DNA of 27,432 nucleotides, taken from the IMG/VR virus record IMGVR_UViG_2695420763_000018; one strand, written 5' to 3'. Positions 4,964 through 25,901 of the stretch are shown here, in pieces (the first letter of the stretch is position 1; the number at the start of each line of letters is the position of its first letter). The stretch is from a virus. Its lineage: Duplodnaviria; Heunggongvirae; Uroviricota; Caudoviricetes. Both the position numbers and the translations under genes were made by a program. The notes beneath the pieces were generated by a model. It saw only the letters and a program-made list of their open reading frames with translations, was not told the origin of the DNA and searched no databases.

Positions 4964-6439
4964 TTAGGAGCGCCAAAAAAAACCTGAAAACAATATAATA
5001 ACAGGATAAATTTCAAGGCGACCAAGAATCATAGCTATGCACATTAAACATTTTGCAATGTCATTAAGCACTCCGAATGACGATGCAGTAGCCCCAAAAC
5101 CTAATCCCATATTATTAATACATGCAGCCACTGTTGCAAATGATGTAAGAAAATCATATCCCATACCATTTAACACCAGTATAAAAAACACCGTGAAGAG
5201 AGTATAAAGAAAAAAGAAACTCCATACAGACCTCATTACACGATCTGTAACTATCTTCCCTCCTACATTTACACTCAACAACGCTCTGGGATGAGAAAGC
5301 TGATTTATCTCGTGTTTGCTTTGTTTGAAAAGTATAAGAAATCGAAGTGACTTAATTCCACCACAAGTTGAACCTATACATCCCCCAAAGAAACTTGACA
5401 ACAGCAAAAACACTATCGTGTGCGTGGGCCAACTTGCATAATCCTGCGTAGCTAAACCATTATCAGTGAGCATGGAGCTGGCAAGAAAAAACGAATGAAT
5501 AAAACTTCCATGCAAGTCATACATACCTATATGCCAGACCTGGAAAGAGGTAACAATGATCACCCCTAAGGCTATTAACAGAAAGAAACGAAGTTCAATA
5601 TCTCTGATTAAAGGTTTTATCGTTTTCCTGCTAATAACAATATACCAAAGAGTGAAGTTGAAAGCCGATAGCAGGGAAAAAGAACCAGCCACCAGCTCAA
5701 CCAAATAGTTATTAAAATATCCGATACTCTCGCTATGAGTTGAGAAACCACCAAGCGAAACTGTGGAAATCCCGTGACAAATAGCATCAAACAAAGGCAT
5801 TCCTGCAAGTCTATAACAGACAATACAAGCAATACCTAATAAAGAATAAGTTATCCACAGTGTCCGTGACGTATCGGCCAGGCGGGGAGTGAGTTTGTCA
5901 TCCTTAAATGGCCCCGGCATTTCTGACTGATAAAGCTTTGCACCACCAATACCCAATAATGGCAATACAGCAACCGCCAGAACAATAACTCCTAAACCAC
6001 CTATAAAATTTAACTGTGACCGATAGTACAAATATGCCCGAGGTAATGAACTAACATCATCAATTACAGTTGCTCCTGTTGTTGTTATTCCAGAAACCCC
6101 TTCAAACAGAGCATCAATGAACGTTAAATTAAGTTCTGAGTCAATCCATAAAGGGAATGCACTAATAACAGAAAACAAAATCCAAAACATTACAATTATA
6201 ATAAACCCATCACGGGTACGTAATTGAATGCCAGATTTCTTAGTTGTATACCACGCTCCGCCACCAATGCAAAAAAATATAACGAAAGTTATAAAGAAAA
6301 CGAACAGGCTTTTTTCTTTATAAAACAATGCTACAACCATTGGTGGCAACATTGAAAGACTATAGAGCCAAACCAGGAACCCACACATATGAGTAACAAC
6401 TCTTACATGAGATGTATTCATATCTAAATATTCTTTCAA
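4964..6439 (-). CDS. trkG: Trk-system K+ uptake protein TrkG
   Basis: 491-aa polytopic membrane protein with repeated GxGxxG-like pore segments, recognised as TrkG of Rac; gene and flanks are visibly AT-rich relative to the surrounding phage genes. Confidence 0.9.
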   Translation of the reverse strand: MKEYLDMNTSHVRVVTHMCGFLVWLYSLSMLPPMVVALFYKEKSLFVFFITFVIFFCIGGGAWYTTKKSGIQLRTRDGFIIIVMFWILFSVISAFPLWIDSELNLTFIDALFEGVSGITTTGATVIDDVSSLPRAYLYYRSQLNFIGGLGVIVLAVAVLPLLGIGGAKLYQSEMPGPFKDDKLTPRLADTSRTLWITYSLLGIACIVCYRLAGMPLFDAICHGISTVSLGGFSTHSESIGYFNNYLVELVAGSFSLLSAFNFTLWYIVISRKTIKPLIRDIELRFFLLIALGVIIVTSFQVWHIGMYDLHGSFIHSFFLASSMLTDNGLATQDYASWPTHTIVFLLLSSFFGGCIGSTCGGIKSLRFLILFKQSKHEINQLSHPRALLSVNVGGKIVTDRVMRSVWSFFFLYTLFTVFFILVLNGMGYDFLTSFATVAACINNMGLGFGATASSFGVLNDIAKCLMCIAMILGRLEIYPVIILFSGFFWRS

Positions 6440-7983: not shown

Positions 7984-8379
7984 CTAACCTCGCATGTCAA
8001 AGCCAGATTTCTGAAAATCTCTGTAGACTTCCGGATTGTTGAAGGCCGGAAATTTGGCTTTATGAGCTGCGGACTTTATCGCTTCGCAATAGGCTTTATC
8101 ACCGTTACTGGTAGATATTTTTAACGCCGTGCCATCCTGAGAGAATTCCATATGCAACCTGCATTTTTTCCCTTTCCAGTTATGCGGCTCATCAAGTTTG
8201 GCATTAATTGCAGCTCTGATTCCCCGCGCTTGCGCCCCCCATTCATCCTGATCATCCCAGCGTCCTGAACTGCAACTACCTGTAGCAGTAGTTTTGTGGC
8301 AATCTGAAGGGTGTAAAGGTGTGCATCCCGCAACAAAACCGACCCAAAAAGTCAACATAACGATTTTCTTTAATCCCAC
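7984..8379 (-). CDS. lipoprotein with TolA-domain-III-like C-terminal domain (paralogue 1)
   Basis: 131 aa; signal peptide with lipobox FVAGC; GTG start at 8379 preceded by GAGGAG at 6-nt spacing. C-terminal half aligns with paralogue 2 (GKxCxLxM...G..L......GD...C.EA..A...A..PA...PEVY..FQ). Confidence 0.7.
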   Translation of the reverse strand: MGLKKIVMLTFWVGFVAGCTPLHPSDCHKTTATGSCSSGRWDDQDEWGAQARGIRAAINAKLDEPHNWKGKKCRLHMEFSQDGTALKISTSNGDKAYCEAIKSAAHKAKFPAFNNPEVYRDFQKSGFDMRG

Positions 8380-8529: not shown

Positions 8530-8958
8530 TCAGGGTTTAAAATCCAGCACCCCATTTTGAAATACTTTATATACTTCCGGCGAAGGGGGGGCAGGTATAT
8601 CAGCATTCTTTATCGCATTCATCGCTTCACGACATAAATCGAGGTCTCCACTTTCTCTTTTAACCTCCAGTAGAAGGCCATTCGGGGCCATATGCATTCT
8701 CAGTGTACACTCTTTTCCTGAATACTTACTCGCATCCCCGAACTGTTTTTCGATGGCGCTCTTGATTTGATGGGCATACAGACGGATATCCTCACTAACA
8801 TCAGAAGTACGTTCAGATGAACTCACATACTGTGTCTCTATTGCTTTATCGGAGTAATATGATGTACGGTCATGATAATTTGTCGATACAGCATCAGTGC
8901 ACCCGATAATAATCCCACTAATAATCAACGTAAGAATTGATGCGCTACGAAAACCCAT
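8530..8958 (-). CDS. lipoprotein with TolA-domain-III-like C-terminal domain (paralogue 2)
   Basis: 142 aa; lipobox IIIGC. C-terminal segment QIKSAIEKQFGDASKYSGKECTLRMHMAPNGLLLEVKRESGDLDLCREAMNAIKNADIPAPPSPEVYKVFQNGVLDFKP closely resembles the TolA C-terminus as I remember it. Confidence 0.75.
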   Translation of the reverse strand: MGFRSASILTLIISGIIIGCTDAVSTNYHDRTSYYSDKAIETQYVSSSERTSDVSEDIRLYAHQIKSAIEKQFGDASKYSGKECTLRMHMAPNGLLLEVKRESGDLDLCREAMNAIKNADIPAPPSPEVYKVFQNGVLDFKP

Positions 8959-9534
8959 TTTTCCTCACATATGTCATATAGTAAAGGATTATATATACCG
9001 TTGTTTTGGACGCTCAAACAGCGAATCAGATCAAATAAAACGCACATTTGTTAACATTTACACAAAGTCTGCGTGGGATATTCTGAAAGAATATCCATAA
9101 TGTGGAGAGAATCTATTGAAGTGCATGGTGCCGGGTGCCTCCCGGTGAACAAAATGTTCGTGATACCTGTCGGCGACAGAAAAGGTTAATGGTATCACCC
9201 CACCGCACAGGGGGATTCACCATGCAGGAGTTTTCTTAGCAAACTCACTGCGCGCCCGGCAACTCCCAACCACATAAAATGCGGAGTTTGTGGCATTTGT
9301 GCATATAACTCGCAGGAATTATCTTAAAAAACTGATGTCGATCCGGATTAAAAAGAAGCAGGTCATCATCAGATGACTGGAAAAAAGGAAAACAAAAAAT
9401 ACTCATCATACAGTTTTGATTGCAGGGATGAGCCTGCTATGCACAATATAAGCAAGATAAAAATATGCAGGCATATTATTTCGGATTTTGTTATTAACAC
9501 AACCTTTTTAATAATCATTTGGCATACAATAAAC

Positions 9535-10553: not shown

Positions 10554-11096
10554 TCAAGCCATTTTCTCAGCAAATGATTCACGCATGGGAATATATAGGG
10601 CATACTCAGCAACAGCTAACCAATTAGCAATCCGTTTTTCGCATGTGCTAAAACACCACTCTGGGTGTGCATCATTTAGCAATTCAGCCATTTTACGCTT
10701 AGTCATCCCCCGCCCTTCATAGCGTTGCCGGAGAATGCAAATCAATCCTGGATGCTCTGCCAGCACCTCACTTATGACTCGATCAATACATAACGCCTCT
10801 GCATCAGTACAATGCGCCAGCCAGCTCTTTTGCTTGCCGTTGATCATCTCTCGCAAAAACGCTTCCAGCTCAGCTTTCTCTATTCCCGCTTTTTTCATTC
10901 TGCGCAGGGCTTCATTGATGGCTGTTTTCGTCAATTTTTTGGATGCCAACAACTGATTGAACATATTTCCTGACCTGCCACCGCCAATATACGACCAGCG
11001 CCCCCACATACGCAGTTTGCCCTGAATCCAGACACTTTCCAGCGTGGCGAGACGAAGGTGTTCTCCGCTTTTTCCTGTATTCGTTGGGTAAATCAC
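10554..11096 (-). CDS. late-gene antiterminator Q
   Basis: Segment LRMWGRW and downstream region resemble the Q-antiterminator family as I recall it. Proposed start is GTG at 11096 (codon 41 of the tracked ORF), preceded by AGGAGG at 7-nt spacing and overlapping the upstream TGA (GTGA). Confidence 0.65.
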   Translation of the reverse strand: MIYPTNTGKSGEHLRLATLESVWIQGKLRMWGRWSYIGGGRSGNMFNQLLASKKLTKTAINEALRRMKKAGIEKAELEAFLREMINGKQKSWLAHCTDAEALCIDRVISEVLAEHPGLICILRQRYEGRGMTKRKMAELLNDAHPEWCFSTCEKRIANWLAVAEYALYIPMRESFAEKMA

Positions 11097-11383
11097 AAAT
11101 ATCCCTCCTTTCTCCAGATTTCTTGTGTGCGAAAAACACCTTCTGCATGCATCAGGCGTAATTCTTCTTTGGTGTAATCGCTGGTTTTTACCCGCCCGTC
11201 GATTAGATCGTGGCATGAGCTACAGGCAATCGCCGCCTGCATATCGTGTGGTTTTGTCGCTGTTCCGCACGTTCCCGCCAGTCGGTAATGCGCCAGCACA
11301 GACGTTTCCGGATCGTGATTGCAGTAGCCAGGAATTCTGACGGTGCACATCTGCCCCCGCGCCGCTTTACGTAAATCCACCAT
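11093..11383 (-). CDS. YbcO-like (DUF1364) putative nuclease
   Basis: 96 aa with Cys/His cluster (CNHDPETSVLAHYR...CSSCHDLIDG); GGAG 8 nt upstream of ATG 11383; the ATG overlaps the TAA of the upstream gene (TAATG). Confidence 0.65.
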   Translation of the reverse strand: MVDLRKAARGQMCTVRIPGYCNHDPETSVLAHYRLAGTCGTATKPHDMQAAIACSSCHDLIDGRVKTSDYTKEELRLMHAEGVFRTQEIWRKEGYL

Positions 11384-11982
11384 TACGCAAACTCCAGCAG
11401 CTGCGCGGTCACATTTTCGACTTGTTCCGGAGAGGAAAATTTACGGAACAGAATCCAGTTCCACAGCACATTCAGAACAGATTTATAAACCTGCTGAAAC
11501 TCGGTTTCGTCCATATTCGCAAAAGCGATGGATTTCGCCCGACGCCCATGGCTACCATCAGGATAAAGATGCTCGGTGTAAAATCCGGCCTGAATGGTTA
11601 CCCACTCGCGGAAAGCCTCAAACGACTATAGCAATGCCGTATCCCGGGTTCTGCGTGTCGCAACTGTATTCAGATATTGCTCTGCGGCTTCGCTCAGAGC
11701 TGGCGTATGTTCCCGGCCTACTGATTCACATAGGTAATCAACGAATCCTGAAACCAGCTTTCGTTCGCGAGGCGTGATCGCCCCACCGACCGGAGTCCAG
11801 TAATCGAATCCCAGTTGCAGGAGTTTGAAAAAACGCTTGTGGAATGCGTAGTTACGCACACGCTTAAAGTCTGCGTGTATCCACTCGCCTATTTTGATTT
11901 GATGCAAAAAATCGCAACTCTCCGGCGTCGCCGGGAGAAGTAGTCCAGAAGAGGTTTGTTTGACCAGTTGTATATGCGCCAT
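11383..11982 (-). pseudogene. nin-region gene (possibly DUF1367-like) interrupted by an in-frame amber codon at 11626-11628
   Basis: The 118-codon ORF ends at TAG (11628-11626); the same frame then stays open for 80 more codons (SFEAFREWVTIQAGFYTEHLYPDGSHGRRAKSIAFANMDETEFQQ...LLEFA) and ends at TAA 11385-11383, which overlaps the next gene's ATG. Confidence 0.6.
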
Positions 11983-12260
11983 TTCTCAATCTCTCGATGG
12001 CGCAGTGCAGCAGATGCCAGTTGTTCAGGCTGACGAATAAAGTATAAATAAACTGGCTATGGTGTAAAGCTCCACATAACATGAACAAACACTACATATC
12101 AAATAGCTGATACAAGGATAGAAATACAACACTTATTATTAAAAACGATTAGATAAATTACATTTTAATGTTATGAAAAAGTTCTTTTTTATCATAACAT
12201 TTCAACAAAAGCATTACAGATGCACATCCCGTCATCATCAATTATTTAAGGTGGTTAAAC

Positions 12261-13273: not shown

Positions 13274-13399
13274 TCACAGCCTCCGTCTGCCAGTTCGGAT
13301 TCGTACCTCGCAGAGGTCTTTCCTCGTTACCAGTGCCGTCACTATGACGGTTAAACAGATGACGATCAGGGCGATTAACATCGCCTTTTGCTGCTTCAT
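13274..13399 (-). CDS. hok: Hok-family type I toxin homologue with divergent, shortened C-terminus (41 codons); possibly decayed
   Basis: Product MKQQKAMLIALIVICLTVIVTALVTRKDLCEVRIRTG matches the RelF/HokD N-terminal 37 residues as I recall them, then reads RRRL-stop where canonical Hok continues QTEVAVF...; AGGAG SD upstream; a 19-codon upstream ORF ends on ATGA at the hok start (mok-like coupling). Confidence 0.6.
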   Translation of the reverse strand: MKQQKAMLIALIVICLTVIVTALVTRKDLCEVRIRTGRRRL

Positions 13400-13921
13400 A
13401 GCCTGCTTCTCCTTGACCTTTCGGTCCGTAAGAGGCTAATCTCTATGTGTCGCATAGATATGGCCTCAGATTAATGTTAAACGTCTTGCAGGACGCGTAA
13501 TGTTAACTGGGGCTTTTCTCTATCTACCTTTGGTGTTCATGCCCGAGGCAGATAGCCTCAAGCACCCACAGCAATTCTAACTATCCAATACATCACTGCC
13601 AACACTTTAAACTCTTACCCTTTAAAACAAGAACAAAATTCAACCAATCAGCATTGGGCGTATACTCATATCCTAGAGAAAACAACTCTTTCTGTACTAT
13701 TTATATCCATATGATTTATAAGCATTTGCCACTTGCCATAGCCGCACAATGACAGTTTGCCATTTGATGTCAATAGATAAAAATGATCGTTTTCAATGAG
13801 TTACATACTTGCAAGGCGTTGCACATCAGGCCCGATTACGTCAGTATCAAAAGATTACAGATGGTGCATTACTGCCACCTCGCCTTAATGTTCCAGAACT
13901 CTCCAACTTGAGGAATTTTCA

Positions 13922-25504: not shown

Positions 25505-25699
25505 ATGAGATATGACAATGTTAAACCATGTCCATTTTGTGGTTGTCCATCAGTAACGGTGAAAGCCATTTCAGGATATTACCGAGCGAAGTGTAACGGA
25601 TGCGAATCCCGAACCGGTTATGGTGGAAGTGAAAAAGAAGCACTCGAAAGATGGAATAAACGAACCACTGGAAATAATAATGGAGGTATTCATGTATAA
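25505..25699 (+). CDS. ralR: RalR (Lar), restriction alleviation protein and type I TA toxin
   Basis: 64 aa from MRYDNVKPCPFCGCPSVTVKAISGYYRAKCNGCES...; zinc-ribbon-like Cys pairs. Confidence 0.85.
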   Translation: MRYDNVKPCPFCGCPSVTVKAISGYYRAKCNGCESRTGYGGSEKEALERWNKRTTGNNNGGIHV

Positions 25700-25901
25700 A
25701 ATTACCGCCACTATTGAAAAGGAAGGTGGCACTCCTACTAACTGGACAAGATATTCAAAATCTAAACTAACGAAATCAGAATGCGAAAAAATGCTCTCAG
25801 GTAAAAAAGAAGCAGGCGTTTCCAGAGAGCAGAAAGTAAAACTGATAAATTTTAATTGCGAGAAACTTCAGTCCTCGAGAATTGCATTGTATTCAAATTA
25901 A
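25692..25901 (+). CDS. ydaC: YdaC
   Basis: 69 aa from MYKITATIEKEGG...; GGAGGT SD; its ATG overlaps the ralR stop region. Confidence 0.75.
   Translation: MYKITATIEKEGGTPTNWTRYSKSKLTKSECEKMLSGKKEAGVSREQKVKLINFNCEKLQSSRIALYSN

Follow-up and report, generated by a model that had tools for sequence, protein, structure and literature searches.

The window analysed here, a stretch of 27,432 nucleotides (IMG/VR virus record IMGVR_UViG_2695420763_000018), comes from an E. coli isolate and is a lambdoid prophage of the Rac type. We are highly confident that one of its genes, a member of the DUF1367 family, carries a real, recent and rare nonsense mutation: the lysine codon AAG at position 119 has become the amber codon TAG, with probable loss of function. 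The event itself, a gene-inactivating mutation, is of an ordinary kind.

A split reading frame

The split gene is read from the minus strand and consists of these parts:

11626..11982, minus strand: 5' part of the DUF1367 gene, from the ATG at 11982-11980 through 118 sense codons to the premature TAG, as given by the list of open reading frames and their translation
11626..11628, minus strand: the premature amber TAG, codon 119; the plus strand reads 'cta'
11628, minus strand: the mutated base, gene nucleotide 355, an A>T change on the coding strand that turns AAG (Lys119) into TAG
11383..11625, minus strand: 3' part of the DUF1367 gene, now untranslated, with 80 in-frame codons and the original TAA at 11385-11383

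An earlier note on this DNA had described an open reading frame that stops at the TAG of positions 11626-11628, while the same frame goes on for 80 codons without another stop, for a total of 199. The coordinates are right, for a gene on the minus strand, and translation of the frame gives the announced sum: 118 + 1 + 80 = 199. The note also took the motif TAATG, at the end of the longer frame, as the mark of a genuine C-terminus. Indeed, the original TAA of the DUF1367 gene has one base in common with the ATG of the minus-strand YbcO/DUF1364 gene (11383-11093), and the read-through product spans the DUF1367 domain from end to end: with the TAG read as X, it matches positions 1-198 of the 198 of the Pfam family PF07105 (DUF1367) with 321.9 bits, for a cut-off of 25, and E 2e-96. 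Each half of the split gene exceeds the Pfam gathering score by itself: taken alone, the 118-aa product matches positions 1-113 of PF07105 (E 1.7e-53), and the 80 residues beyond the TAG match 120-198 (E 7e-38).

Such a long open stretch beyond a stop would seldom arise by chance: when the window is read in its six frames, 3.2% of the inter-stop intervals have at least 80 codons, and of shuffled versions of the 240 downstream bases 1.7% remain open. A chance origin of the stretch is excluded by another observation, namely that the downstream residues show DUF1367 homology. Where an uninterrupted reading frame of ~199-200 aa is expected of a member of the family, the copy in the window has a TAG at codon 119; judged by its sequence, it is a disrupted member of DUF1367, that is, a pseudogene. 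To call it a nin-region gene, as the note does, is fair as regards position: the replication genes lie on one side and a Q-like gene on the other.

Comparison with intact alleles

The earlier note proposed to align the gene with intact homologues in order to see which codon replaces the TAG, and the answer is AAG (Lys). The comparison with the allele of strain 7/2 (WP_000940344.1) is simple: the sole difference in 600 nucleotides is at gene nucleotide 355, and the 80 codons of the 3' part are the same, with no further change. In terms of proteins, the allele of the window is identical to WP_000940344.1 (PF07105) save for codon 119, but it yields only residues 1-118.

Among more distant relatives, the region that is now untranslated is well conserved. 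Alignment A1, which brings together 28 full-length homologues from seven genera, has 32 invariant columns; residues L117, L118 and K119 are among them, and 15 lie beyond position 119. Position 119 is still a lysine in 89 of the 110 distant homologues of a second alignment (A2), in which identity goes down to ~28%. Intact alleles taken from metagenomes show a pN/pS of ~0.1-0.3 over the C-terminal 80 codons, with mostly synonymous changes. By these sequence measures, the 80 downstream codons are conserved and under purifying selection. The note had named, as evidence that would speak against a disrupted gene, homologues that naturally end at the position of the TAG, with downstream codons showing no conservation. 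We observe the reverse: the length of the homologues is almost fixed at 199-200 aa in Escherichia, Citrobacter, Salmonella, Serratia, Klebsiella, Pantoea and Erwinia, and the 80 codons are strongly conserved.

Among the explanations that the note put forward, the one that agrees with these comparisons is a recent nonsense mutation that creates a pseudogene: a single A>T substitution, from AAG to TAG, at an invariant lysine, in a gene that is otherwise identical to intact alleles. The mutation must be recent, since no secondary decay has accumulated downstream.

One more allele deserves mention. The metagenome contig ERZ779880.19538 (L021) carries a divergent DUF1367 allele with an extra stop within its first 11 codons, in a naive in-register comparison; an indel or a different start may explain this disrupted N-terminus, or the allele may be a pseudogene as well.

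Occurrence of the amber allele

The window is identical to contig CYCV01000009.1 of the NCBI assembly GCA_001286025.1, over 20,357 bases out of 20,357. The same TAG, with flanks that are 100% identical, is found in the Logan assembly of run ERR178158 (3,403 bp), and again in an unrelated ENA metagenome scaffold, ERZ28628763 (1,147 bp). Since ERR178158 and GCA_001286025.1 may come from one isolate, the only clearly independent confirmation is the single metagenome scaffold of 1,147 bp.

An error of sequencing or assembly, in which the true codon is AAG and the DUF1367 gene is intact, was another explanation offered by the note. It could draw on the facts that the allele differs by a single base from a very common one, and that its source is a draft assembly. 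However, the identical TAG and flanks appear in both the Logan assembly and the unrelated ENA scaffold, and the substitution sits outside any homopolymer, where a substitution is atypical of Illumina or assembly artefacts. The recurrence of the TAG in these two assemblies disfavours an error, and we hold it to be extremely unlikely.

How common is the allele? Of 5,426 complete E. coli genomes, 1,329 have the gene and not one has this allele: the best match is at 99.8%, and none is at 100%. In a scan that permitted A or T at the mutated base, none of 14 metagenome contigs has the TAG allele, and all of them read AAG. At least 1,000 contigs are on record with the intact DUF1367 protein, and 6 with the 118-aa product; three of these 6 have the TAG. 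The TAG allele is thus real but rare.

The remaining three contigs with the 118 residues just end there, and are not amber alleles. These contigs (L004, L005 and L007) differ in sample of origin and in prophage context, with Fic and Rem neighbours; the last base of each is gene nucleotide 354, immediately before the site that is mutated in the window. We considered that they might share an assembly break or a mosaic junction and rejected this, the members of the cluster ending at many other positions; the common end of the three contigs probably comes from the look-up itself, which selects for exact matches to the protein.

What the truncated protein lacks

An exhaustive profile search yields 2,065 relatives. 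Some of them (P0173, P0209, P0218, P0222 and others) have a short form of ~155 aa that matches residues 1-64 and ~117-198 of the long form, and lacks residues ~66-105. A confident AlphaFold2 model computed with the alignment of 110 sequences (pLDDT 93.1, pTM 0.78) places the following elements along the protein:

residues 6-8 and 15-17: strands, N-terminal
residues 20-27 and 45-61: helices, N-terminal
residues 71-88/90-112: helical hairpin insert
residues 121-131: helix, C-terminal core
residues 135-139/145-149: beta-hairpin, C-terminal core
residues 159-176 and 185-198: helices, C-terminal core

As modelled, the 199-aa form shows a core of ~155 aa to which a helical hairpin of ~40 residues (~66-105) is added. 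The TAG sits where the conserved C-terminal core begins. Truncated at 118 aa, the product retains the N-terminal part of the core and the helical hairpin insert, and is deprived of all the elements from helix 121-131 on; the near-invariant residues G133, G143, S151, F154, M157, F162 and Y166 are lost with them. Because the product lacks the conserved C-terminal core, we infer that the gene is almost certainly inactivated, and is a nascent pseudogene.

The consequence for annotation is immediate: the entry that fits is a DUF1367 pseudogene with an internal stop, and not a 118-aa protein as in NCBI CTV84659.1. Beyond annotation, the importance of the mutation is small. It offers a clean example of a very young lesion in a prophage, in which one base has changed and all else that was compared is intact.

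A possible relation to NinB/Orf

The literature that we searched contains no functional or biochemical study of DUF1367/ydfU. In the PHROGs collection, the protein belongs to phrog_319 (E 9e-70), labelled 'NinB/Orf homologous recombination mediator', while the NinB of phage lambda belongs to another family, phrog_72. A Foldseek comparison with the viral models of BFVD returns several proteins named NinB, at marginal E-values, and the predicted fold appears to support the PHROG label that ties DUF1367 to lambda NinB/Orf.

Sequence comparisons give a more reserved answer. Neither the protein of the window nor 10 short relatives have a Pfam match to PF05772 (NinB); a search of PDB sequences with the family profiles by hmmsearch does not recover 1PC6; and hhalign finds no significant match between the DUF1367 family profiles and lambda NinB alone. 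When the 110 DUF1367 sequences of alignment A2 are compared with an alignment of the NinB family (A3), hhalign reports a local match of 37 columns with probability 11.8%, around a common motif R-N/S-x3-H/N-R/K-K-x-F/W-x2-L. DUF1367 thus differs from lambda NinB/Orf (PF05772, PDB 1PC6) in having no significant sequence homology with it, and the 199-aa form differs also by its helical hairpin, which is missing from the DUF1367 members of ~155 aa. All in all, the balance tips slightly towards DUF1367 being an accessory protein of recombination, similar to NinB/Orf and bearing a hairpin insert, a prediction that falls short of demonstrated family membership. The activity lost with the mutation would then be a NinB/Orf-like accessory function in recombination.

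Suppression, read-through and re-initiation

A third explanation in the earlier note was that the gene is conditional: the full-length protein would be made by amber suppression, with a supE/glnV-like tRNA of the host, or by natural read-through of the TAG. The downstream frame is indeed intact, and the same as in functional alleles; but a very recent mutation predicts this equally. We looked for tRNA genes in the 27.4-kb window and found none. The stop lies in the context UAG-U, and a 3' U reportedly promotes termination in E. coli, amber suppression being best before a purine, as Poole, Brown and Tate are said to have found in 1995. Moreover, no homologue bears a stop at codon 119, and amber suppressor alleles, which typify laboratory strains, are seldom met in natural isolates. 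Expression that depends on a suppressor is unlikely, and we consider a conditional gene, by either route, very unlikely.

The production of a split protein by re-initiation was also considered, and rejected. The only in-frame ATG after the TAG is codon 157, which has no Shine-Dalgarno sequence, and a product that starts there would lack residues 119-156. As far as the sequence can tell, rescue by re-initiation is unlikely.

Downstream genes and possible polarity

We return to the nonsense mutation, and turn to its surroundings. The DUF1367 gene is the first of a chain of three overlapping genes, of which the other two are:

11093..11383, minus strand: homologue of the YbcO/DUF1364 His-Me (HNH) nuclease (PF07102, E 2.9e-45; phrog_131, HNH endonuclease)
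10554..11096, minus strand: homologue of a Q-like antiterminator (DUF1133), 180 aa (PF06576, E 3e-106; phrog_753, 'anti-termination protein Q-like')

The YbcO/DUF1364 nuclease has been placed among the His-Me fingers (PMC5714182). The Q-like gene starts with the GTG at 11096, which overlaps the stop of ybcO (GTGA); its product has 100% identity over residues 1-180 in a tblastn comparison, and an identical gene is annotated likewise in RefSeq. A mechanical list of reading frames gives it as 220 aa (10554-11216, minus strand), which over-extends the gene with respect to the annotated form of 180 aa from GTG 11096. The same order of genes, DUF1367, DUF1364/YbcO and DUF1133/Q-like, is found in the E. 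coli Rac-like prophages that have an allele of the WP_000940344.1 type.

With the TAG, 243 nucleotides are left untranslated ahead of the start of ybcO. Ribosomes would quit the mRNA 243 nucleotides before this gene, and translational coupling to ybcO and to the Q-like gene would be lost; the expression of both might be reduced by this decoupling. Rho-dependent polarity on the two genes is conceivable, though speculative.

One can go further and imagine that the TAG has been kept by selection: polarity on the YbcO and Q-like genes would lower the expression of late genes and so tame the prophage. Such a selected attenuation is in keeping with the layout, in which genes are chained by the overlaps TAATG and then GTGA and a gap of this length opens before ybcO, and with the presence of the allele in more than one sample. 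On the other hand, ybcO has its own GGAG at a good spacing, 8 nucleotides ahead of its ATG; no rut-like bias of C over G marks the untranslated stretch, which is neither C-rich nor G-poor (C/G 0.6-0.95); the allele is very rare; and no other degradation is visible in the prophage. We regard selected attenuation as quite improbable. A broader conjecture has the TAG polar on YbcO and Q, as a first step in the taming of an otherwise intact Rac-type prophage, and makes DUF1367 a divergent mediator of the NinB/Orf type with a hairpin insert; this combination is improbable as well, and we would give it a small chance at best.

A scan for promoters and terminators around the DUF1367 gene yields counts that are no higher than in shuffled sequence. 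This includes a terminator-like hairpin at 11465-11442, inside the untranslated stretch, which does not stand above the yield of the scan in shuffled sequence. A sigma-70-like site lies on the minus strand at 12041-12068, with TTTACA, a 16-nucleotide spacer and TATACT, or 10 matches out of 12, about 60 nucleotides upstream of the start of DUF1367, at the edge of an AT-rich gap of 840 bp that follows oppositely oriented genes. This putative site could be the own promoter of the DUF1367-ybcO-Q chain; such sites are, however, no commoner here than in shuffled sequence.

As a single-step change from AAG to TAG inside an operon of translationally overlapping genes, the mutation resembles the classical amber mutations of phages with downstream polarity. 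It differs from them in being a natural allele of a wild isolate instead of a conditional-lethal one selected in the laboratory, and both suppression and polarity are hypothetical here. Together with its AAG counterpart, the TAG allele could provide a naturally occurring isogenic pair with which to probe what DUF1367 does, or whether Q is subject to polarity.

The prophage and its other elements

The window carries the following genes:

intR, xisR, ralR, recT, recE, kilR, sieB, racR, ydaS/T/U/V
DUF1627, DUF977, a KilA-N gene, the hok/sok locus, DUF1971
followed by DUF1367, YbcO/DUF1364 and the DUF1133 Q-like gene
two TolA-like ORFs, a lysis cassette, trkG, ynaK, terminase and DUF4055

The window has 30 coding sequences in common with a related prophage of strain APEC 102026. 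Only DUF1367 has an internal stop; the others are full length in the window. The mutation is thus a single lesion in an otherwise intact-looking prophage.

The gene of the potassium transporter trkG (4967-6421, minus strand) lies between the lysis cassette and the ynaK and terminase genes. It has the same placement in the Rac prophage of E. coli K-12, which is not known to carry the nin-like, Q-like and holin/lysozyme genes found here.

The window also contains several small elements. Between the Q-like gene and two ORFs with a TolA C-terminal domain there is a region of 1.6 kb without any ORF of at least 80 aa; it contains an STnc100 small RNA (RF02076, 86.6 bits). The coordinates are:

9069-9255, minus strand: STnc100 small RNA
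7984-8379, minus strand: ORF with a TolA C-terminal domain
8530-8958, minus strand: ORF with a TolA C-terminal domain

The RalA antitoxin small RNA (RF02694, 225 bits) follows directly after the ralR toxin gene and is encoded on the other strand. Together they form the known type I toxin-antitoxin pair of Rac:

25698-25876, minus strand: RalA small RNA
25505-25696, plus strand: ralR toxin gene

Finally, the hok/sok locus extends over 13274-13567 on the minus strand, and its sok antisense RNA is a confident Rfam match (RF01794, 101.5 bits). The hok ORF has only 41 aa, ending in ...RIRTGRRRL*, with a continuation 'QTEAV...' in another frame. Compared with the canonical HokD, the sequence suggests that the Hok toxin is frameshifted; the 41-aa form is annotated in strain 7/2 too.
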